Origin: a virus
IMG/VR virus record: IMGVR_UViG_3300009149_000014
Location: 1 to 64,000 of that record
DNA length: 64,000 bases
Direction: 5' to 3' (one strand)
Every line of letters starts with the position of its first letter. Within the stretch, counting starts at the first letter, position 1. Made by a program: the position numbers and the translations under genes. Shown here in pieces: positions 10,158 to 41,636 of the stretch. Under the pieces are notes generated by a model. That model was not told the origin of the DNA. It was given only the letters and a program-made list of their open reading frames with translations, and searched no databases.

Positions 10158-10804
10158 TGGCAAAATTCGAACTGTTGTGTTCAAAAGATCAAGTAGCCGT
10201 TATCAAGATCGGCAACTCTATTTATTATGTCGATCTTGATAACCATTTTGATGTTCTGGTCTATGATTCTGAGTTTAACAAACAAAATATTATAGTTCCA
10301 GAATACTGGCTTCCCGAGGTCACTCGTGGTGAAGCTACTCTCGCCGTGCTTAAAGCCAGCATGACTGCGTATGAGAATGGGTTTAATGCTGGATACTCTA
10401 TTAAATCAAAGCGTCATTTCAAGCACTTTGCTGAGAAATTGGCTCAATCGATGATGAATCCTGAACTTGCCAAACGCATTGTTCAGCTTTTTTGGGTCGA
10501 GCTTCGCCCATTTGATGTTATCAAGGACATGGTGGCTAAAATTGTTTCGAACGAACAAATTCGTTCGAAAACGGCTCGTGCTTCGCGTATGACCCTTGAT
10601 CGATATATTCCTCGTGCTGCATTTGAAGGTGACAAAGAATATCGTGACAAAATATTCACAATTATACAAGACATGGAACCTGTAACATTTGATCCTACTG
10701 ATGAACTCCTCAACGTTTTAGATCTTGAGGACACAGATGTGCCACATCTGATACAAAATATCGACAAAATAGTGGGATTACGAACCAATGCCAGAACCGA
10801 GTGA
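10157..10804 (+). CDS. hypothetical protein
   Basis: 215 aa ORF coupled by TAATG to the actin-like gene. Confidence 0.6.
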   Translation: MAKFELLCSKDQVAVIKIGNSIYYVDLDNHFDVLVYDSEFNKQNIIVPEYWLPEVTRGEATLAVLKASMTAYENGFNAGYSIKSKRHFKHFAEKLAQSMMNPELAKRIVQLFWVELRPFDVIKDMVAKIVSNEQIRSKTARASRMTLDRYIPRAAFEGDKEYRDKIFTIIQDMEPVTFDPTDELLNVLDLEDTDVPHLIQNIDKIVGLRTNARTE

Positions 10805-13388
10805 GTATATAGGACCCTCTGGTTTTGCTCATCTTCACAGTCATTCGATTTATAGTGCTCTTGACGGTGTAGCAACTATTGATGAGTATGCTGAGAAATG
10901 CGTAGAACGTGGCTGGTCTGGTATGGCTCTCACCGAACATGGTCATATGGGTTCGTTGCCCGATTTCTACTTCAAATTCAAGGAACATGGGCTCAAGGCG
11001 ATACCAGGGTGTTTCTTGCCTCTACAGCCTGTTTTGACAGATTCTGGCGTAGTGGATATCGAGGATCTTGTTGATGGCCATCGCTTATTGACTCACAAGA
11101 ATGGTTTCCAACCAGTATTGAATTTGCAATCTAGAGCCTTTAAAGGCGACATGGTTGTATTAAAATCTTGGGGTGTTGAGGACATAACTTGCACATCTGA
11201 ACATCCTTTTTTAGTTAGAGAAGTCAAGCGTAGAAAGATCAAAAAAGGTGTTTGGGAGGATGATATAACGGTAGGATGGTATAAGGCTGGTGAGCTATTT
11301 AGGGAGAAATACCACCGGACGTATGATACCAAAAAGAGTAAAAATAGAGACAACAAAAGGCGATATCGTTTTTATTTGTGTGTCCCTAGGCCAAATGGCT
11401 CTGGAATTGATAATGTTCCTGTCGATTCTAATTGTTTCCTCGAAAATCATGATTTGACTTTCGAGGGCGATATTATTAGATCTGTGAAGTATCACGGGAA
11501 ATATCGTAATGAATATTCTGTCAATTTGCCTCGGAAACTTGAGCTTGATGAGGAACTTCTATGGATAATGGGTCTATGGTTAGCAGAAGGAACTGAGAAA
11601 AATGGTTTACATTTTCATCTCAGTTCTGACGAGTTCCATTTTTGCGAGAGAATAACAGAATATTTTGCACAATTTGGTATTAAAACATCTCACGCATTTA
11701 GAAATGGCGATGGCGAAAAAACACCCAGAGAAGCTTTAGATGTTTCTGTTTACTCAGTCTATTTTGGTCGCTTATTTGTCAATTTGTTCGGAGAATATTT
11801 CGATCGAAAATCTATACCATCAGATTGGTTGCTTGGATTGTCAAGAGATCAATCAAAATGGTTATTAGATGGCCTCTTCGATGGGGATGCTAAAGTTTGT
11901 AAAGATCAGAGTTATTTGAAACTATGTAATAGAACTTTAGTTTGGCAGGCCAGAGTCTTATTGTCTGCGATTGGTCAATATTCCGCTGTTTCAGAAATCC
12001 CAAACAATAATTCTGATAATATTGGTTATTGTATTCGTCGAAGAGAATCCGGGCATTTTTATTATGATCTAGATGACGATTTTATCTATTTGCCTGTCTA
12101 TGATATCGACAAGTTGGAATACGACGGCCTTGTTTATAATGCTCAAGTAAAAGATGACAATTCCTATAATGTTGGAGTTGCTTGTCATAATTGTGAGATT
12201 TATTTCAACGACTTCGAGCCTCAGCGACAGAAGTTGGTCGAGCAGGGCATTAAAATGAAGAGTCAGGCATGGCGTGTCGAGAATTTTGAACTTGCGACTC
12301 GTATCAATCGTAATCGTCACCTTACTGTATTGTGTAAGAATGAGATCGGATTACATAATCTTCTTAAGTTGACCACTGAAGCATATGATGATGGTTTGTT
12401 CGGTGCTGGAAGCCGCAAAATGAACCGCATCTGGTTCGATAAATTGTGTAAATATCGCGAAGGTCTTATTATCTTAAGTGGATGCTTAAATGGTCCAGTC
12501 GCCCATGAATTGAGATATAAGCAGCTCGTAGACAAAGAAGGCAATATTATCGTTGAGACTACTCGAAAAGAACGATTTATTGCAGCGGCTAATTATGTAA
12601 AGAAATTCAAGGATGTCTTCGGCGAGGATTATTATATTGAGCTTCAAATGCCTGGGATCGAAGACGATCATGAGGTGTTTTGGGATTTAGTGGGTTTAGC
12701 TGATTTCTTTAAATTGAAGCTGGTGCTTGCGAACGACTCGCACTATATTCAACGTAAAGACTTTCAAATTCAAAAGATCATGATGGCAACGGCTCAGGGG
12801 ACTACTGTTGATTCCCCTGATTTGTTTCATGTGAATAGCGATGAACAGTTTTTTAAGACCAGGGCTGAACTTTGGGCTTATTTTAACAATAATCGTTATT
12901 GCGAAAAGGTTAGTGGTAGCCAATTCGAAGCAATGTGTGATACCACTCTTGAGATTGTTGATAAATGTGAGAAAGTTGAGCTTGATGGTAATCCTAAATT
13001 CCCTAGGATTACTGATGATGCGACTAAATTGACTGAGATCGTCTTTAAGGCTTTGCGAACCAAAGGCTTGGACAAAATTGATCGTAAATTCATTATTGAC
13101 GGTCGTGAGGTAACGTATACCACACAAGCAACTATCGAATTAACACGGTTTATCTCAAAAGGGTTCGCAAGTTATTTCTTGATCACTCAAGATTTAATTA
13201 TGTACGGGAAATCCAGGGGCTGGATTTTCGGCCCCCGAGGTAGTGCTGGTGGCAGCTTAGTTTGTTATTTGCTTGGATTGTCATCCATCGACCCATTGAA
13301 ATGGGATTTGTCTTTCGACCGATTCTTGTCTGAGGCTCGTGGTGGATATCGTCTCAATGCTTCTATGCCTAAACCGGTTTCAACATGA
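10788..13388 (+). CDS. dnaE: DNA polymerase III alpha, N-terminal part (PHP domain plus first palm segment), intein-containing
   Basis: HLHSHSIYSALDG, LTEHG, PG/CEIY, ILSGCLNG, NDSHY, GPRGSAGGSLVCYLLG, FDRFLSEAR. Ends just before the catalytic PDxDxD. Confidence 0.93.
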   Translation: MPEPSEYIGPSGFAHLHSHSIYSALDGVATIDEYAEKCVERGWSGMALTEHGHMGSLPDFYFKFKEHGLKAIPGCFLPLQPVLTDSGVVDIEDLVDGHRLLTHKNGFQPVLNLQSRAFKGDMVVLKSWGVEDITCTSEHPFLVREVKRRKIKKGVWEDDITVGWYKAGELFREKYHRTYDTKKSKNRDNKRRYRFYLCVPRPNGSGIDNVPVDSNCFLENHDLTFEGDIIRSVKYHGKYRNEYSVNLPRKLELDEELLWIMGLWLAEGTEKNGLHFHLSSDEFHFCERITEYFAQFGIKTSHAFRNGDGEKTPREALDVSVYSVYFGRLFVNLFGEYFDRKSIPSDWLLGLSRDQSKWLLDGLFDGDAKVCKDQSYLKLCNRTLVWQARVLLSAIGQYSAVSEIPNNNSDNIGYCIRRRESGHFYYDLDDDFIYLPVYDIDKLEYDGLVYNAQVKDDNSYNVGVACHNCEIYFNDFEPQRQKLVEQGIKMKSQAWRVENFELATRINRNRHLTVLCKNEIGLHNLLKLTTEAYDDGLFGAGSRKMNRIWFDKLCKYREGLIILSGCLNGPVAHELRYKQLVDKEGNIIVETTRKERFIAAANYVKKFKDVFGEDYYIELQMPGIEDDHEVFWDLVGLADFFKLKLVLANDSHYIQRKDFQIQKIMMATAQGTTVDSPDLFHVNSDEQFFKTRAELWAYFNNNRYCEKVSGSQFEAMCDTTLEIVDKCEKVELDGNPKFPRITDDATKLTEIVFKALRTKGLDKIDRKFIIDGREVTYTTQATIELTRFISKGFASYFLITQDLIMYGKSRGWIFGPRGSAGGSLVCYLLGLSSIDPLKWDLSFDRFLSEARGGYRLNASMPKPVST
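11010..12191 (+). mobile_element. intein (394 aa) with LAGLIDADG endonuclease in the DnaE PHP domain
   Basis: Begins CFLPLQPV after IPG; block B TSEHPF; motifs GLWLAEG and DGLFDGDA; ends VACHN before +1 Cys (CEIYF). Confidence 0.92.
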
Positions 13389-14371
13389 TTAGAATACAAT
13401 ACAAAGACGCAATTATCAATGGCCAATTATACTGTACTCTCCAAGTGCAGCGAGAAATGAATGAAGGCGAATACGCCATGTTATTCATGTCCCGATGGTT
13501 TGGCTCCGCCGAAGTTCTCCCACCAGGTGGCCGTGGCGAACTGCTCGCTCTAGCCGCTACCACCGGTTCTTATCGCCATGAGCTTTTATTGATTAGTCCA
13601 CCATTGGATCGCAATGCTGATAAAGTCCTTACAGATTGGCGAGCTAGATTTCAGCGTATTGAATATTGCGTCTGTGACGTTTCAGTCGAACAGATTTTGG
13701 CGGCTGAATGTCAAATACTTGCTGACTCTGACGAACGAGCTATTGTGGATGAAATCATGATCAAAAACTTGCCTCCCTCCGTCTTCTATGAATCTCATGA
13801 TGGCAAGCATAAAGCTAATCTCAGCGGTTCCCTAAACGATATTGAACCCAATGATTTTGTTTATGTTTTGGTTGAACCACCTGCCAAAATCATCGGATTC
13901 CGCCGTGCTTTTTCTAAAAAGCACCTTAGAGAGCTTGTGTCTCAAGCTAATGATCATGGACTCCTTATTTATTATAGTTCGTTCAAAATCGAAGGTCGTC
14001 ATACTGTCGCCGAAGGGCCTTGGGTATTATTACCAGCTTCCTTGCGAAATCTTGGTAAATCATCCGGTCCATCTGTCGATGTTGGTGATGTTGTGAGTAC
14101 ATCGGTCGATGTAGTAAATGATGACGAGACCAGCGACGATGGCGAGGTTAGCGATGAAAACAATGATCTCGAAACAACCAGCTCTGATGCCCCTGTTGTC
14201 TCGGTCGAGAATGTTATAACGTCTGATGATTCGGACAGTATTGTTCAAAATAAGGACGGTAAATTAATCTGTCCTTATTGTCAGAAAGAATTCAAAAAGG
14301 CGTTTGGTTTGTCAAACCACGTCAACTCAATTCACCCGGATCGCGTTGATGACTACAAGTCTCGCAAATAA
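13385..14371 (+). CDS. hypothetical protein with acidic linker and C-terminal C2H2 zinc finger
   Basis: CPYCQKEFKKAFGLSNHVNSIH fits C-x2-C-x3-F-x5-L-x2-H-x4-H. Confidence 0.7.
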   Translation: MIRIQYKDAIINGQLYCTLQVQREMNEGEYAMLFMSRWFGSAEVLPPGGRGELLALAATTGSYRHELLLISPPLDRNADKVLTDWRARFQRIEYCVCDVSVEQILAAECQILADSDERAIVDEIMIKNLPPSVFYESHDGKHKANLSGSLNDIEPNDFVYVLVEPPAKIIGFRRAFSKKHLRELVSQANDHGLLIYYSSFKIEGRHTVAEGPWVLLPASLRNLGKSSGPSVDVGDVVSTSVDVVNDDETSDDGEVSDENNDLETTSSDAPVVSVENVITSDDSDSIVQNKDGKLICPYCQKEFKKAFGLSNHVNSIHPDRVDDYKSRK

Positions 14372-17300
14372 GATAGAAACATGGGCAGAATTCGAAGAAT
14401 TGGTCAGGACCTCTTCGTCTCATTTGCCTCAAGACTATCAAAAACGCATTGAATTCGAATTATACGAGCTTAACAAACAGGGTCTTAATGGTTTGTGGCT
14501 CGAATATATTGCTACTGATGCAAAATTCGATTCGAATCCCAACAATTTGCTGATCCCGTGGGTTCTACAAATGTTGACTGATATGACAGATCCGATGACC
14601 CTTCGGACGTCACCATGTCTGGTCAGTACAAGCTATGATGAAGTTGCCGCTTATGTTGAAGAACATGGCGAACCTCCCCATGATTTCCTTAAAGATTCCG
14701 ATGTTCCGGATATCGACATTGATTGTCTCCCAGCAGCTCGTGATCCAATCAAGGATTATGCTATTCGTCGCTATGGTGATGGCGATTCATTAAGTGATTT
14801 GCAAGTTTGTAGTGTAGGCACATGGCAGACATACAAATTCAAAATGGCTATTCAAGACGCGGCCACCGCTTTAGGGTACATGCATCGGAAAGAGGCTGAA
14901 AAGCTTACGTCCAATCTACCTGAAGATCTCGATAACCTAAAACCGGGTGGTTTCGCTACATGCAAAGGCATTATTACCAATGATGCTGGTGAACACAAAG
15001 AATGCGGACATAAGCATTACAAATATCAATGTCCCAAATGTGGTAGTGAAATCACTGATGCTCCTACTCTTGAGCGATTACTCAAAGAAAATGAAGAACT
15101 GAACAAGTTCGCGATTCAATATCCATCTGTGATTGCATATGCCGCCAAAATGGTCGGTCGAATCCGCAACATGGGTATGCACGCTGGTGCTCTGATTATT
15201 GCCAATTCTAAATTGCTCGGTAATATCCCATTAGGCAAGAACAAAGCAGACGGCCCATGGGTGTCCATGTGGTCCGAAGGCAGTAATCAACAATTGTCGA
15301 AATGCGGATATATCAAGTGGGACATTCTTGGACTCAAGACTCTTGAGTATATTTACGATTGTTGCCGCATGATTAGGGTTAATCGCGGTATTTCTTTTGG
15401 TATTCCACAAGAAATCGAAGGTTATGGTGGTTGTTATGAATTGTCAGGTCTAGATGAAGTAGATCCCGAAGCTGATTATTGTGGCAAGTTTTATGGTCCG
15501 GATGGTGTTGAACATGAGATCAGATATAATGATTCTCATACTTACAAGCTTATTAATACCCAACGTACTGACACGATCTTTCAATTCGATACGTCTCTGG
15601 CTAAATCGATTTTGGCCGATGCATCCGAAGGTGACGGTGTTAGTGATCCACACCAATTGACATTGCTCAATGCTCTTGGCCATCCTGGTCCAATGCAATC
15701 TATTCCAAAAATTTTGGCGAATCGCGATGATCCATCTCAGTCATGGAAAGAAGAATTAAAATCTCGTTCTCCGATTATGTACGATATTCTTAAGACGACT
15801 TACGGACACGTATGTTTCCACGAGACAACTAAGATTACCAAAAGCAATGGTCAAGAATGCTACATTACTGATATTAAAGCGGGAGACACAGTATTTTCTG
15901 TAGACGAAGACAGAAATATTAATATTAATGAGGTTGAATGTTGTGGTCCGACATATTTCGGCGATGGTCTTTGTATCACTTTAAGCAACGGTTATAAATT
16001 CATTGTTACCGACAATCATGATGTTCCCACATATGATGGTGTATTGGACGCTTGTGATTTGCGAGTTGGGGACTTGCTCGGCGTACCAAAATCACTATCG
16101 GTTGATGTTGATAAAAAATTTGAAAATTGCGTTGATTGGCTTGGTGACCCAGAGGATGCTGCTTATTTAATAGGATTCTTGGTTGGTGATGGTTCATTGT
16201 CTGGGTCTGGTGTTTCAATATGCTGTGGCAACGACCCAAATATCACTAATATCTTAGAAGATTTTATTTCAAAGTCGTTTAAGCCTATTAATATTCATAA
16301 ATATTGGCATTGTAGATCATGGTATCTACAGTTGTCTACAGGTGTCAAGAAAGAGAAAAATTTTGACATCAGAACCTTTGTTGATAACATGGATTGGTGG
16401 CAAGAAGCTTATTCATCTTACTCTGGTCAAGATATTTCTGAATTTATCGGGAAAAGTGCGTGGTGGACCTATAAGAGGATTAGAGAGTTAGGTATTGATG
16501 TTACCGGTTCTTCAAAAAATCCTTGGAAGTCAAAATTCATTGACACCATTGACTATCTTGGTCTACGATGTTCGGTTTATCACAAGAGAATTCCACATCA
16601 AATACTATCCGCTTCAAGACAGATTAGACAATATTTTTTAGCTGGTTTAATAGAATCGGATGGCCATCTTTCTGAGAACGATGAATCTTGCTATGTATCG
16701 TCTATTAATGATGATTTGTTGGATGATATTAGATGTCTTTGTACCTCTTTGGGTATTGGAACACATTTTTCCGAACATCATAGAATCTATATATGGGACA
16801 CCAAAGAATTAGAATCTGCGATTAATGATAAATTATTATTTAAATCATTTAATAAATCTTTAACCAGCGGCTCACACTCATATTACGTTTCTAAATATGA
16901 ATTCCATCGATTGTTTAAAGATTCTGGTTTGTCGCAACGAAAGTTTGCTTGTGTTTATGGTATTGCTAGAAGCCATTTCAGAAACAATTCTTCGTTAATT
17001 TCGAAGAATGTCGCTGATAAAATTGGAGTATCAACAGGAGATTTGAATTATGTTAAAGTGACTCGTATTGATAGAGTCACTGGTCAGTATTTTTGGAATT
17101 TATCTGTAAAGAATGATCATAGTGTAATCGCAAATGGTGTATATCTTAAACAGTGTTATCAAGAGCAATTAACTGCTCTATGGCAACGGCTGGCTGGCTT
17201 TTCGGCCACAGAAGCTCAAGCGGCTCGTAAGGATATTGCTAAAAAGAAGATTCACAAACTTCCAGCAATTAAGGAAAAATGGGTGCGTGGTGCCACAAAA

Positions 17301-18461
17301 ACTCTTGGTGCAGATTTTGCAAATGATTATTGGTCAGTTTTAGAGACGTTTGGACGTTACGCTTTCAATCGTAGTCACGGTGTTGCATACGCCGCTATTA
17401 TTGCATATCGTTGCACATGGTTCAAGGCCCACTTTTTCCCCGAGTGGATCGCATCTGTTCTTAGTACCTGTGATCCGAAGAAAGCTCCACGTTATATTTC
17501 GATGGCTCGGGCTGAAGGATGGAGACCTACTGATATTACAAATATTGGTCGACCACCAGCGGAAGGTTATGAAAAATTCGATATTATCCCAGTAGATATC
17601 AACAACCTGAGCCCGAACTTTAGTGTGATTGGGAATGTTGTTTCTGTTGGTATGCTGTCGATTAAGGGTATCGGAGAATCAGATCGTGCCGTTGCAGAAA
17701 TGGACGCACATTTCGAATCGCTCGATGATTTTGTTGCGAAAACTAATGCTGGTAAGACTTTGGTCGAACGATTGATTCGGCTTGGTGCGTTTGAGAAAAT
17801 ACCAGGACATTCTAATAGTCGTGCATTGTGGTATTACTATTCATACACGCATAAGAAATTGAGCACGGCTGAACGTCGTGAATTATACCCAAAGCTATTG
17901 CAAGCTAGTGGTTGGACACCTGAAAAGATCGAGGACGAACGTGATCGGCAAGTTGATGCTTATCGCGAATTATATCCTAAGAAAAAAGAGCAGAATTATC
18001 CTAAAAAGGTGACTGAATGGATGCCTGCGGATAAGCATGATTTGTCCACATTCTGCGAAATGTTCGAAGATTATAAAATCGCCGAGATTATTACATTCGA
18101 AGACGAGTATCTTGGTTATCATTTGTCCAATCCATTGTTGATGTACGATACGAGAGCAAATAGAGATATTGACGGTTGTATTGAAGATTGTATGGTCAAT
18201 AAACCAGCATTTCTCGAATGTATTATCGTCGAGGTCAATCGTGGTGCGACACAAAAAGGTGACCCATATTGTCGTTTAAATGTTGCTGATGGAAGACAAA
18301 CCACAACAGTCTTCATTTGGAGCAACAATCTTGATCGCATTAATCCTGCTCTATTAAGAAAGGGTGTCGCGGTTATGATTCCAGTCGGTTATCAACCTAA
18401 ACGTAAATCTTTCACTATGCTCAAAGACAACGTAATCATCCCGTTGAATCGAAAAGACTAA
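14349..18461 (+). CDS. dnaE: DNA polymerase III alpha, C-terminal part (catalytic palm, thumb, fingers, HhH, OB), intein-containing
   Basis: PDIDID, GMHAGA, KWDILGLKTL, IFQF, YQEQ, YAFNRSH, SIKGIG, OB-like end. ATG 14349 preferred over TTG 14304. Confidence 0.92.
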   Translation: MTTSLANKIETWAEFEELVRTSSSHLPQDYQKRIEFELYELNKQGLNGLWLEYIATDAKFDSNPNNLLIPWVLQMLTDMTDPMTLRTSPCLVSTSYDEVAAYVEEHGEPPHDFLKDSDVPDIDIDCLPAARDPIKDYAIRRYGDGDSLSDLQVCSVGTWQTYKFKMAIQDAATALGYMHRKEAEKLTSNLPEDLDNLKPGGFATCKGIITNDAGEHKECGHKHYKYQCPKCGSEITDAPTLERLLKENEELNKFAIQYPSVIAYAAKMVGRIRNMGMHAGALIIANSKLLGNIPLGKNKADGPWVSMWSEGSNQQLSKCGYIKWDILGLKTLEYIYDCCRMIRVNRGISFGIPQEIEGYGGCYELSGLDEVDPEADYCGKFYGPDGVEHEIRYNDSHTYKLINTQRTDTIFQFDTSLAKSILADASEGDGVSDPHQLTLLNALGHPGPMQSIPKILANRDDPSQSWKEELKSRSPIMYDILKTTYGHVCFHETTKITKSNGQECYITDIKAGDTVFSVDEDRNININEVECCGPTYFGDGLCITLSNGYKFIVTDNHDVPTYDGVLDACDLRVGDLLGVPKSLSVDVDKKFENCVDWLGDPEDAAYLIGFLVGDGSLSGSGVSICCGNDPNITNILEDFISKSFKPINIHKYWHCRSWYLQLSTGVKKEKNFDIRTFVDNMDWWQEAYSSYSGQDISEFIGKSAWWTYKRIRELGIDVTGSSKNPWKSKFIDTIDYLGLRCSVYHKRIPHQILSASRQIRQYFLAGLIESDGHLSENDESCYVSSINDDLLDDIRCLCTSLGIGTHFSEHHRIYIWDTKELESAINDKLLFKSFNKSLTSGSHSYYVSKYEFHRLFKDSGLSQRKFACVYGIARSHFRNNSSLISKNVADKIGVSTGDLNYVKVTRIDRVTGQYFWNLSVKNDHSVIANGVYLKQCYQEQLTALWQRLAGFSATEAQAARKDIAKKKIHKLPAIKEKWVRGATKTLGADFANDYWSVLETFGRYAFNRSHGVAYAAIIAYRCTWFKAHFFPEWIASVLSTCDPKKAPRYISMARAEGWRPTDITNIGRPPAEGYEKFDIIPVDINNLSPNFSVIGNVVSVGMLSIKGIGESDRAVAEMDAHFESLDDFVAKTNAGKTLVERLIRLGAFEKIPGHSNSRALWYYYSYTHKKLSTAERRELYPKLLQASGWTPEKIEDERDRQVDAYRELYPKKKEQNYPKKVTEWMPADKHDLSTFCEMFEDYKIAEIITFEDEYLGYHLSNPLLMYDTRANRDIDGCIEDCMVNKPAFLECIIVEVNRGATQKGDPYCRLNVADGRQTTTVFIWSNNLDRINPALLRKGVAVMIPVGYQPKRKSFTMLKDNVIIPLNRKD
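15813..17153 (+). mobile_element. intein (447 aa) with LAGLIDADG endonuclease and atypical Lys-Gln C-terminus
   Basis: Begins CFHETTKI after TYGHV; block B TDNH; GFLVGDG and AGLIESDG; ends IANGVYLKQ before CYQEQ. Confidence 0.9.
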
Positions 18462-23219: not shown

Positions 23220-23471
23220 ATGAAGAATATCCGTGCTTTCGACATTGTAATAATAACCAATCCCGCTGGTGTTCTTGGCCAAAAGGGAGGTTTCGACTCT
23301 AGTGGTAGATGGTCTGTAGTATCTAGCCACGACGAGTTTATTGTTTTATCACGTGGAGCACGTATCCTACGTGTTAAACCTGATGCTGTTGAAGTTTTTG
23401 GCCATTTCACTATGGATGTGAAAATGGATACCGGTATTGACTCTGATATAGGGGATGAAGTTGGTGGCTAA
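23220..23471 (+). CDS. hypothetical small protein
   Basis: ATG 23220 (MKNIRAF) avoids overlap with the - strand gene and abuts recA. Confidence 0.5.
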   Translation: MKNIRAFDIVIITNPAGVLGQKGGFDSSGRWSVVSSHDEFIVLSRGARILRVKPDAVEVFGHFTMDVKMDTGIDSDIGDEVGG

Positions 23472-25677
23472 AACTAAATCGAGTAATTTAGCAATTGAAG
23501 ATTTGTCTGATCTCAAAAACCATTTTGAGAAGAAGTATGGCGAAGGAACTGTCCGATTTGCGGGCGATAAGGCGATCGTCGAAGTCGATGTTGTTCCAAC
23601 CGGTGTGATTAGCATCGATGAAGCAATTGGGTGTAAAGGAATTCCCCGTGGTCGAATCATTGAAATTTATGGCCCTGAATCAAGTGGTAAGACGACCACA
23701 TGTCTCAAAATCGGAGCCGCATTCCAAAACACAATGTTCGATATTAAGGACGATAAAGGGGTTGTGATCGGTCAACGTAAAGGCCGAGTAGCTTTTGTTG
23801 ATGTTGAACATGCTTTTGATCCTAAATGGGCACAAGCTATCGGACTTGATGTCAATGAATTGATCTTCGCTCAACCCGACTATGGCGAACAAGCTTATGA
23901 TATTGTCGAAATGATCGCGAAATCTGGGAAAGTAGAATTGATCATTCTCGACTCTGTTGCTGCAATGGCTCCGAAAGCTGAAATCGAAGGAACGCTAGAA
24001 GATAGTAATGCCATTGGAGCCCAAGCTCGAATGAATAGTCAGGCATTCCGAAAGTTGAAGGGGATTGTATCTGACAATAATTGTACATTGATGTGCGTGA
24101 ATCAAATTCGTGAGAAAATTGGAGTTATGTTCGGGTGCTTGCATGCGGATACACTTATTCCGTTCGTTGATGGTCGGATCTTGCCTATCAGACAAGTTTG
24201 TGATGAAAAAGTCGAAGGCGAAGTTTGGTCTTTTAACGAAAAGACAAAAGAGTTCGAACCAAAGAAAATCACTGATTGGCATTACAATGGTGATGTTGAA
24301 TCTCCAGACGATTACTTGCATGTTTCATTACGTGGGCCAGGCACTAAAAATGGTTCCATGCAGATTACCGTGACGCCCAATCATGAAGTGTTGCATCGTG
24401 GCGAATTTGTGCGAATGGATACGTTGGATGTTGGCGATAAACTAACAACGAAACAAGAATGTTTTGTGGTTAATGATTCCACTGGGAAATTAAATGGTTC
24501 TCTTGGTCAATTTTTGTCTGGTGTTTTGTCTGGTGATTCCCATATCTCCAAAAACCCAAAAAGATTAGGAGCTTCTTTAAAAATCAGGGATAATATCGAT
24601 ACTGACTACATGAAATGGAAATCGGAAAAAATCAATGAGTTTTTGCAAATGACTCAATACAAATGTTCATCTGGTAGTTTTTTCTCTTCTGATGTATTTC
24701 AAGAATTCGCAAAGTTGAAAGATTTATATCCAAATCGTGACCCGATGCTTTTATTAAATGATTTTTCGTGGCTTGGATTTGCAATTTGGATTATGGATGA
24801 TGCCGTCTATGAAAGAGGGCGTTATCAATTATCCATAAAGAGATTCCGTGGAAATTTTGATAAACTCGACGAAATTAGTAATGCGTTGGATGAATTTGGA
24901 TTATATCACCATATGTCGAAAGGTGGTAAGGTCACATTTGATGCGTCTGTCTCAGAACATATCGCAGGGAATATTTGTGTTTTTGTTCCAGTTTGTATGG
25001 ATAGGAAGCTACCAGTTCACAAACGCGGACAGTATTCTGAATTTGAATTACTTCGAGACACAGAATTCACAACCGCTGATGTTGAAATAACCGGAATCAG
25101 ATATGCTAGTATGAGACAGATGAAACAAAAAGGCAAATATGACATTTCTGTGGAAGACAATTATAATTACATGGCTGGCGGGAATCCTCTAGGTGTCATT
25201 GTTCATAACTCGCCTGAAACAACTCCAGGTGGTCGTGCTCTGAAATTCTATGCTTCTGTTCGCATGGACATTCGTCGCACAGGTTCATTCAAGGTCGGTG
25301 ATACCATTGTTGGTAATGAAACCAAAGTGACATTCAAGAAGAATAAAGTCGCTCCGCCTTTTACTGTGGCTCATTACAACATCACTTTTGGCCTTCCAGA
25401 ATATCCAATTTCTGGTGTTGATCCTTATTCCAGTCTCATCGAATCTGCTAAAGCCAAGAAGATTGTTACGACGGCTGGTAGTCACTTGAAATATGGTGAC
25501 ATATCATTGGGCAATGGGCTGGCTGCTTCGGCTGCTACATTGTCCGTAGACCCAAATTTATTCCAGCAACTTTATCGTCATGTGGTTACTGGATCAGCAC
25601 AATGCCATACACAGCTCCCCTCTACGAACGAGGTAACACCGTCTACCTCCGAGAATCTGCCGCAGTCGGATTCCTAG
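23455..25677 (+). CDS. recA: RecA recombinase, intein-containing
   Basis: GPESSGKTT, DVEHAFD, ILDSVAA, NQIREKIGVMFG/SPETTPGGRALKFYAS, KNKVAPPF. Confidence 0.96.
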   Translation: MKLVAKTKSSNLAIEDLSDLKNHFEKKYGEGTVRFAGDKAIVEVDVVPTGVISIDEAIGCKGIPRGRIIEIYGPESSGKTTTCLKIGAAFQNTMFDIKDDKGVVIGQRKGRVAFVDVEHAFDPKWAQAIGLDVNELIFAQPDYGEQAYDIVEMIAKSGKVELIILDSVAAMAPKAEIEGTLEDSNAIGAQARMNSQAFRKLKGIVSDNNCTLMCVNQIREKIGVMFGCLHADTLIPFVDGRILPIRQVCDEKVEGEVWSFNEKTKEFEPKKITDWHYNGDVESPDDYLHVSLRGPGTKNGSMQITVTPNHEVLHRGEFVRMDTLDVGDKLTTKQECFVVNDSTGKLNGSLGQFLSGVLSGDSHISKNPKRLGASLKIRDNIDTDYMKWKSEKINEFLQMTQYKCSSGSFFSSDVFQEFAKLKDLYPNRDPMLLLNDFSWLGFAIWIMDDAVYERGRYQLSIKRFRGNFDKLDEISNALDEFGLYHHMSKGGKVTFDASVSEHIAGNICVFVPVCMDRKLPVHKRGQYSEFELLRDTEFTTADVEITGIRYASMRQMKQKGKYDISVEDNYNYMAGGNPLGVIVHNSPETTPGGRALKFYASVRMDIRRTGSFKVGDTIVGNETKVTFKKNKVAPPFTVAHYNITFGLPEYPISGVDPYSSLIESAKAKKIVTTAGSHLKYGDISLGNGLAASAATLSVDPNLFQQLYRHVVTGSAQCHTQLPSTNEVTPSTSENLPQSDS
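24136..25209 (+). mobile_element. intein (358 aa) with degenerate LAGLIDADG endonuclease in RecA loop L2
   Basis: Begins CLHADT after GVMFG; TPNH; GVLSGDS and WIMDDA; ends VIVHN before +1 Ser. Same GVMFG/SPETT context as the M. leprae-type RecA intein. Confidence 0.93.
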
Positions 25678-40499: not shown

Positions 40500-41271
40500 T
40501 GTCAAAACATTTCGTCTTAAAGACTTCCGGAGTCGTCGTATCGATGTGACACATATCAATTGTGGTCTGACTAACAGTTATAAGCCCGGCCACCGTGAAT
40601 CCGATTTCTTTCCAGGTTATGCTAGCTATAATTCAATTTTATTCGAAAGCAGTTGTATCTTAACAATATGGGAGCACATGAATGAGCTTTTTGATGATTC
40701 CCCCATTATGATCTTGCATACCGACATCACACCATTGTTTCGCGTAGCCGATACTCTCGACTATTTGGAACAATTCGATTCATTTGCTTGTGGACTCACC
40801 GTGCCGAGTTATCATGCTAATGATTACGATCAATTGGTAATTGAAGACACTGATAAATATCGATGCAGTGTCGATCCTTGGCAAGTCATGAAATTCGACG
40901 GTGTTGTGGATATCTGGGATCTAATTCGTGTGATCGATCCTGAAGCTTGGGAATTCGGCATGGACACCGATCCGATTATGATCTATTCTCACCAATTCGT
41001 TGCATCCAAGGACATTTTCAACAAGCTTGGTTACAAATTGTGCCAATTGGTCACACAATTGAAACTGGGACAATGTGGTCTTTGGACACCACATGTTTTC
41101 GAACGCATCATTGCCCTCCGTCTCGCCATGGAAACTGAACCGAGGCTCCTCGCAGCCTTTAGTCATCAGAGTTCGTCCGGACCTAAAGGAGACGGTGCTT
41201 TGACTTTATACGGCCCAAGGCCGCACAAATACTTGCGTCTCAAGTCAAGAGTATTAGATCCAATCGATTAA
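40468..41271 (+). CDS. putative glycosyltransferase-like protein
   Basis: ILHTD and HVFER motifs within the GT cluster. Confidence 0.4.
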   Translation: MNCVFLHHQNSVKTFRLKDFRSRRIDVTHINCGLTNSYKPGHRESDFFPGYASYNSILFESSCILTIWEHMNELFDDSPIMILHTDITPLFRVADTLDYLEQFDSFACGLTVPSYHANDYDQLVIEDTDKYRCSVDPWQVMKFDGVVDIWDLIRVIDPEAWEFGMDTDPIMIYSHQFVASKDIFNKLGYKLCQLVTQLKLGQCGLWTPHVFERIIALRLAMETEPRLLAAFSHQSSSGPKGDGALTLYGPRPHKYLRLKSRVLDPID

Positions 41272-41471
41272 GAATTGTGCAACATCGTTACGATTGCACA
41301 TAATGCCGGATCGGCTTCTTCGAAATTATCGCTTGCCACAAGCCCGGTTTCGACGTCAAGAGAATGCTCAATTATTGCTTGGTCGAAGATAGTGATACAT
41401 TCTACTTTAACAACATTCTTTAATGAGCTGCTGCTTGACAATAGATCACTCGATGCTCTTAGTTCTTCCAT
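41268..41471 (-). CDS. hypothetical small acidic protein
   Basis: Gap-filling ORF with a TTAA stop overlap. Confidence 0.35.
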   Translation of the reverse strand: MEELRASSDLLSSSSSLKNVVKVECITIFDQAIIEHSLDVETGLVASDNFEEADPALCAIVTMLHNS

Positions 41472-41519
41472 CAGTTCCTCCAATTTATGTAGCTAATTCA
41501 CGTCGTATTGTAAGGGCAT

Positions 41520-41636
41520 AGTGAGGAAGTTCAGGGTCGCACGCAGGGGCACCCTGACCGGCATAGTTTAATTCAGAATCTACTCTTGAAATACAGAGTA
41601 AGGTCCAGGTGACTTAATCCTGGTGTCGGCCTCACT
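41520..41636 (+). ncRNA. tRNA-like structured RNA closed by a three-way junction
   Basis: Six helices found by hand, including a cloverleaf body with a GAA anticodon-like loop; TATTGT at 41506 upstream and a T-run downstream. Confidence 0.7.

Follow-up and report, generated by a model that had tools for sequence, protein, structure and literature searches.

RNAs that derive from tRNAs and do not code have been described in phages and bacteria. Phage T4 makes two stable RNAs, species 1 and species 2 (rnaC and rnaD), which range from tRNA size to 140 bases, resemble tRNA precursors and have no known function; both sit in the T4 tRNA gene cluster and are processed along with the tRNAs. Among the Y RNAs, YrlA, which is encoded next to Ro60, combines near-canonical D and T arms carrying tRNA modifications with a GNCGAA-type motif, and Yrn1 of D. 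radiodurans has a closed stem-loop between its D and T arms (Chen et al. 2014, PMC4201824). The mascRNA of MALAT1 is a tRNA-like module within a longer transcript in which the acceptor-flanking sequences pair (PMC8457004). A catalogue built from IMG/VR contains ~8,500 candidate structured RNAs, some of them tRNA-like and some directly upstream of genes; its main text mentions no ligase-associated motif (PMC10690425).

The element described here lies at positions 41520-41636 of a 64,000-base stretch (hereafter the window) taken from an IMG/VR virus record of 116 kb, which is ~32% complete and has a G+C content of 43%. The record carries a tail sheath, a DnaE-type polymerase with inteins, a RecA with an intein and a DnaB, which mark the source as a jumbo myophage. 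A protein identical to the ligase of the window, P0001, is encoded on a contig of 167,022 bases, indicating that a more complete assembly exists. Whereas the T4 RNAs keep company with tRNA genes, the element stands alone before a DNA ligase gene, in a 116-kb record in which ARAGORN finds no tRNA gene.

The element is like mascRNA in being a tRNA-like module with paired acceptor-flanking sequences; mascRNA differs in being eukaryotic, in serving as a processing signal for RNase P and RNase Z and in having an accessible acceptor end, whereas the stem of the element abuts helices on both sides (PMC8457004). RNase P cleavage requires a 7-pair stem by the criterion quoted in PMC4201824 and is thus unlikely for the element, whose acceptor-like stem has 6 pairs. 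With the IMG/VR catalogue the element shares its source and its kind, conserved intergenic structures of uncultured phages, and it may be one of the catalogue's candidates (PMC10690425). The element is absent from Rfam and constitutes a new RNA family of a known sort, namely the tRNA-derived non-coding RNAs of phages and bacteria.

Fold of the element and its conservation

An initial annotation, made from the letters of the window, had proposed an RNA whose helices we located by re-reading the sequence, each of them where it had been placed. The parts of the element are:

41520-41526 with 41630-41636, + strand: closing stem P1, seen in the fold and in both alignments
41527-41530, + strand: AAGU junction strand, invariant across lineages in both alignments
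41531-41557, + strand: P2 hairpin (stem 41531-41537 with 41551-41557), seen in the fold and in the alignments
41558-41563 with 41624-41629, + strand: acceptor-like stem P3, 6 pairs, one of them G.U
41564-41580, + strand: U8/A9-like linker, D-like arm (stem 41566-41569 with 41576-41579) and one-base linker
41581-41600, + strand: anticodon-like arm (stem 41581-41585(6) with 41596(5)-41600), stem covarying
41588-41591, + strand: invariant GAAA within the anticodon-like arm
41601-41604, + strand: variable-region equivalent, 4 bases (4-5 in relatives), its last base U in all
41605-41623, + strand: T-like arm (stem 41605-41609 with 41619-41623), 5 pairs, 2 of them compensatory
41624-41636, + strand: 3' strands of P3 and P1, joined by a linker of zero bases, with neither a discriminator nor a conserved CCA

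The minimum-energy fold of the window element contains P1, P2, P3 and both the anticodon-like and the T-like hairpin, with z = -2.7 against shuffled sequences, and relatives folded singly adopt the same architecture (z = -2.5 and -3.35). The linkers that join the hairpin, the acceptor-like stem and P1 are all of zero bases, and the D-like arm has 4 pairs and a 6-base loop that starts with AA, ends with A and contains no GG. For the anticodon-like arm, the position first given for the stem stands; its 10-nt loop does not, being better read as 6 pairs and an 8-base loop.

The same fold is present in three other phage lineages, which we found through a ligase-based search of IMG/VR and metagenomes and whose adjoining ligases are 54-69% identical to that of the window:

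L002:2864-2979: element of the L002 group, ligase 69% identical
L013:2370-2478: element of L013, ligase 54% identical
L016:525-636: element of L016, ligase 62% identical

Each record carries one copy, and the RNAs are 58-82% identical among the four lineages, with adjoining ligase DNA at 58-68%. A covariance model of the related phages, built with L016 left out, recovers that independent lineage at 94 bits (E 4e-18). When the four elements are aligned with the model, standard pairs fill 98.4% of pair cells; both partners have changed in 16 of the 37 pairs, and each of the six helices includes one compensatory pair or more. Shuffled controls matched these pairing and compensatory values in 0 of 500 cases, and sliding the partners by 1-3 columns lowered pairing to 36-46%. 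An alignment made independently of the model (MAFFT followed by RNAalifold) gave the same structure, with 16 of 36 pairs compensatory.

The changes are spread over the helices. P1 shows compensatory changes in 4 of its 6 shared pairs, its two inner G-C pairs being invariant. P2 consists of a covarying 7-pair stem (4 pairs compensatory), an invariant and irregular distal part (bulged C, G-C, Y-G, A.G, C-G) and a variable end loop of 3-4 bases; in L013 nearly all of the stem has been exchanged and the distal sequence retained. The outer stem and the extra hairpin, on whose conservation the initial annotation had staked its proposal in advance, are thus both conserved with covariation across the four lineages. 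P3 has one compensatory pair. The D stem is 100% paired, with 2 compensatory pairs as well as G.U/G-C and U.G/U-A switches, and the T-like stem ends in an invariant G-C (the 53-61 equivalent). The T-like loop, of 6-9 bases, keeps its first U and an A-N-U on its 3' side, its middle being remodelled. Comparison of the sequences confirms the element as a real, conserved folded RNA of ~110-117 bases in a group of uncultured giant phages.

The family is rare and confined to a small clade of jumbo myophages, none of them cultured: besides the record of the window, it occurs in one group from IMG/VR and in two lineages from metagenomes. Pattern scans of IMG/VR returned the L002 group only, as did a ligase-based scan of the same database, and the metagenome scan returned L013, L014, L016 and L019. 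At 75 ligase loci of more distant relatives no score of the covariance model exceeded 13 bits, and when 185,579 prokaryote genomes were scanned for the pattern there were 10 matches, about the number expected by chance, all scoring below 20 bits with the covariance model. Ligase relatives from Logan/ENA (P0002-P0018) are 50-70% identical to the window ligase; among cultured phages no ligase exceeds 31% identity to it, and GenBank phages yielded no DNA match.

Relation to tRNA and to other RNA families

Several features of the element are those of a class I tRNA. The linkers of its four-way junction measure 2, 1(-2), 4-5 and 0 bases, and its D and T stems have 4 and 5 pairs; all of these are class I values. 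With positions assigned by us on the standard tRNA numbering, every one of the four lineages retains the equivalents of U8, A14, A15, A21, U48, G53-C61, U54 and A58; the A15 and U48 equivalents thus form a Levitt-type pair, and the A-N-U on the 3' side of the T-like loop corresponds to positions 58-60. ARAGORN, run at noise-level thresholds, draws a cloverleaf in exactly the frame of the element in L002 and L016. Across the four lineages position 9 varies with 23, and 46 with 22, as tRNA base triples allow; the sample is too small for these co-changes to be counted as evidence, and since four lineages are known our arguments from tertiary positions rest on invariance rather than covariation. 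Since all four lineages have retained the junction geometry together with eight core positions, the element probably descends from a tRNA gene, with convergence as the alternative.

The differences from a class I tRNA lie in the parts through which a tRNA functions. The acceptor-like stem has 6 pairs and runs into another helix; the bases flanking it form A/C or U/C mismatches and give no seventh pair. Since the bases 3' of P3 covary with the 5' strand of P1, there is neither a discriminator nor a conserved CCA, and the CCA that can be read in two lineages is part of a helix. G18 and G19 of the tRNA elbow have no counterpart, there being no GG in the 6-base D loop of any lineage, and 2-5 other bases stand where a tRNA has T-loop positions 55-57. 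The lack of GG in the D loop and the remodelling of the T loop, first noted in the window, hold across the lineages. In place of an anticodon loop the element has a GAAA-containing loop of 4-9 bases, and it has an extra hairpin on its 5' side. That loop is 8-9 bases long in the window and in L002, while L013 and L016 carry a GAAA tetraloop of 4 bases with a closing G-C pair. None of the four lineages has the 7-base loop of a tRNA with its U33 and a conserved anticodon. The GAA that had been called Phe-like in the window belongs to this invariant GAAA, which is a plain tetraloop in two lineages; it is consequently not an anticodon, and no anticodon loop is conserved.

Programs that recognize tRNAs likewise pass over the element. 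With ARAGORN, neither the window nor the 116-kb record nor the relatives yield a tRNA or a tmRNA, whether by default or with introns allowed. Rfam gives nothing at the gathering score and nothing over the element at E values up to 10, including searches with 91 and 131 bases, and the Rfam tRNA model RF00005 gives no match even in the 91-base search. The initial annotation had anticipated weak hits or none from these two tools, and neither gave any. As for tmRNA, we set that candidate aside on the negative ARAGORN tmRNA search and the lack of an Rfam match.

The cloverleaf geometry and the conserved core positions could be taken to mean that the element is a working, if unusual, tRNA or a tRNA pseudogene in decay. 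We give almost no credence to either. No ARAGORN find and no match to the Rfam tRNA model support them, a working tRNA would have to do without the 7-base anticodon loop, the discriminator, the CCA and the seventh acceptor pair, and decay is excluded by compensatory changes in every helix among lineages that are down to 58% identical. The same compensatory changes bear out the earlier argument that the intact stems speak against simple decay. The fold and its covariation support, for an RNA now seen to be conserved, what had been proposed at the outset: that it is shaped like a tRNA, is not chargeable and has its ends sealed in a three-way junction.

A further proposal was that such an RNA acts in trans as a tRNA decoy that ties up an anticodon nuclease of the host or some other defence protein that senses tRNA. 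Defence systems are countered by RNA decoys in other cases, and a phage-encoded RNA with a tRNA-shaped core that cannot be charged would suit the part. Yet the sites that such proteins use are the ones that have gone: the anticodon-like loop varies in length from 8-9 bases to a 4-base GAAA tetraloop, the 3' end is buried in a helix and the elbow bases are missing, which leaves none of the usual sites for anticodon nucleases, CCA-end toxins or elbow binders. A decoy is in our judgement improbable, and the suggestion of an anticodon-nuclease decoy in particular is not supported, given the loss of a conserved anticodon loop, CCA end and elbow.

The element also has invariant parts that are foreign to any tRNA, namely the AAGU joint, the distal half of P2 and the GAAA tip. 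Judged by helix lengths, the P2 tip may extend as far as the former elbow, or distal P2 may receive the GAAA tip. Inspection by eye for loop-loop complementarity of either the P2 end loop or the D-like loop with the T-like loop gave nothing consistent across the lineages. Because the CCA end, elbow and anticodon loop are absent or remodelled, a tRNA-derived scaffold with a new function is likelier than a general tRNA decoy.

The Y RNAs resemble the element in form. Bacterial and phage Y RNAs of the YrlA or Yrn1 type are ~100 bases long, are not chargeable and tether a tRNA-like module to a Ro60-binding stem of paired 5' and 3' ends; in D. radiodurans Yrn1, moreover, a closed stem-loop lies between the D and T arms at the position of the anticodon arm, as in the element. 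The topology of the element is thus closer to that of Yrn1 and opposite to that of YrlA, in which the acceptor side is a closed stem-loop and the ends lie at the anticodon side. Membership of this family is nevertheless very improbable. The element has remodelled D and T loops rather than canonical arms, no CGAA or GNCGAA-type motif and no Rfam match, and the 116 kb of the record, ~32% of the genome, contain no TROVE/Ro60 gene by a search whose controls respond.

Genomic setting ahead of the ligase gene

The features that flank the element in the window are:

41268-41471, - strand: divergent ORF for an acidic protein of 67 aa, with a strong ribosome-binding site, syntenic in 3 of 4 lineages
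41506-41511, + strand: -10-like hexamer TATTGT, 8 bases before P1
41637-41641, + strand: run of five T directly after P1
41727-43763, + strand: gene for an NAD+-dependent DNA ligase (LigA), identified by Pfam and homologues

In all four lineages the gene downstream of the RNA is on the same strand, and it is the ligase gene in the window, L002 and L013. The gap from the RNA to the next start codon is 90 bases in the window, 21 in L002, 31 in L013 and 21 in L016. Since the RNA lies 21-90 bases upstream of a same-strand gene in every lineage, it is at least physically part of the leader of the ligase gene or of an operon that ends in it; three lineages leave no room for a separate promoter, and therefore the downstream message there contains the element or starts inside it. 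In L016 two genes stand between the RNA and the ligase gene (L016:657-1202), first one for a DUF5662 protein and then an ORF of 212 aa that belongs to no known family. This insertion of two genes argues that the RNA tracks the start of the transcription unit rather than the ligase itself.

The ligase gene is interrupted in the closest relatives. At L010:9739-12787 (contigs as L002-L005, L014 and L019) it is split between its OB-fold and zinc-finger parts into two ORFs of 398 and 324 aa, and between the halves, at 10919-11719 on the opposite strand, lies a gene of 266 aa for a LAGLIDADG homing endonuclease with an HTH. In the window, the DnaE-type polymerase (two ORFs) and RecA, with intein/LAGLIDADG domains, occupy 10788-18461 and 23455-25677. 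With its inteins and split ligase the clade looks rich in homing elements within replication genes.

Both sequence signals that the initial annotation had placed around the element, the -10-like TATTGT before it and the T run after it, were located. A -10-like hexamer lies 8-9 bases 5' of P1 in all four lineages; the hexamers are weak, their flanks are AT-rich and a promoter scan found no -35 element. The 25 bases that precede P1 in the window (41495-41519) are 100% identical to L002:2839-2863, against 82% for the RNA and 68% for the ligase DNA. They occur nowhere else in the 116-kb record, a single occurrence that rules them out as a recurrent promoter motif of the phage, and they are not shared by L013 or L016. 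These bases may be a strongly constrained promoter or operator, or else an unpaired 5' part of the RNA.

P1 is followed by a run of 4-5 T in the window, L002 and L016, and by no such run in L013. A terminator scan flags no intrinsic terminator of the classical kind, a candidate that we set aside; the scan passes over P1 and the U run because the 'loop' they enclose is ~100 bases long.

A leader next to a same-strand gene in all lineages, with a U run behind its closing stem in three of the four, invites the view that the element regulates in cis, as a riboswitch-like or protein-controlled attenuator in which a stabilised closed fold lets P1 and the U run terminate transcription before the ligase gene. 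Conserved junction and loop bases beside covarying stems, together with a GNRA-type tip, are typical of aptamers, and the first ligand to consider would be NAD+ or a nucleotide related to it, since the ligase consumes NAD+. This view fares less well when a switching mechanism is looked for. The predicted folds of L002, L013 and L016 contain no pairing that hides the ribosome-binding site or competes with P1, so that P1 with the U run is the sole candidate platform, and the U run is missing in L013. The next gene in L016, moreover, encodes a DUF5662 protein and not the ligase, and no Rfam riboswitch, the NAD+ classes included, matches at E values up to 10. We regard such a regulator as unlikely.

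On the other side of the element, 48 bases separate P1 from the start codon of the 67-aa ORF. The small acidic protein, of 65-67 aa, is encoded at 41268-41471 (-) in the window, at L016:272-475 (-) and at L010:9356-9553 (-). It belongs to no Pfam or PHROG family and has 3 homologues only in 5.8 billion proteins, and for these reasons gives no functional lead. With just 48 bases available, the promoter of this ORF should lie inside the RNA gene or beyond it, and an antisense interplay between its transcription and the RNA is possible.

This arrangement raises the question of whether the element acts as DNA, as a divergent promoter region, an origin or a set of protein-binding palindromes, or as the antisense leader of the minus-strand ORF. 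In 3 of 4 lineages it does lie between divergent genes, with the promoter of the small ORF placed inside it or beyond. However, in L013 the element starts at the stop codon of a same-strand upstream gene; the small ORF is absent there and the element stands between two + strand genes. The pairing also has a strand: there are 9 G.U cells on the + strand versus 3 A.C cells, 2 of the 3 A.C cells vanish with a better register of the anticodon-like stem in L013 and L016, and the + strand is further supported by the G.U of P3, which becomes G-C in L013. Conservation of a promoter, finally, does not yield a nested structure of six helices with compensatory changes. A role at the DNA level or as an antisense leader is accordingly extremely unlikely.

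Proposed role of the RNA

On balance we favour, by a modest preference, the reading that the element is a conserved, structured scaffold RNA, derived from a tRNA and given a new function, that forms an end-sealed 5' module of the ligase-operon transcript. Transcription would begin at the closing stem from a promoter just upstream, and with the promoter placed there the 5' end of the RNA would fall in that stem. The RNA would fold as the end-sealed first module of a transcript that continues into the ligase operon. At the closing stem and its U run some transcripts would end, each as a stable small RNA, and others would read through as mRNA. The RNA would then serve as a compact scaffold, binding a candidate partner via the new invariant elements, and would be neither a decoding tRNA nor an anticodon decoy. 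Counting against this proposal are the closing stem of 6-7 pairs around ~100 bases, the lack of a U run in L013 and the weakness of the -10-like hexamers.

What the module would deliver divides our expectations: a free RNA that binds a partner and control of the operon are each possible, to an equal degree and each somewhat short of an even chance, with other roles taking the remainder. Of the candidate partners, Ro60, RtcB, a CCA-adding enzyme and an RNA ligase, none is encoded in the 116 kb (~32% of the genome). Bacterial tRNAs, too, can be co-transcribed with mRNAs, as in the tufB operon, and since they share transcripts in this way co-transcription is no argument against a product that acts in trans.

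A more specific scheme is quite unlikely in our estimation, and would go further: a tRNA gene may have been turned into an aptamer-like RNA, its fold locked by the GAAA and the hairpin, that senses a metabolite or a protein, with NAD+ status as the foremost candidate, and gates transcription into the operon of the NAD+-dependent ligase. If true, it would be a new class of regulatory RNA with a visible evolutionary origin in tRNA.

With its size of ~115 bases, the RNA lends itself readily to structure probing and biochemistry even though the phage is uncultured. The element has the look of a tRNA gene that has been rebuilt: the junction core has remained under selection, every functional tRNA handle has been swapped and new invariant elements have been added, which would make it a clean natural case of how structured RNAs acquire new functions. 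It adds a well-supported family to the tRNA-like RNAs of giant phages. Should it prove to control the ligase operon or to bind a host factor, it would count as a new RNA with a regulatory or anti-host role.
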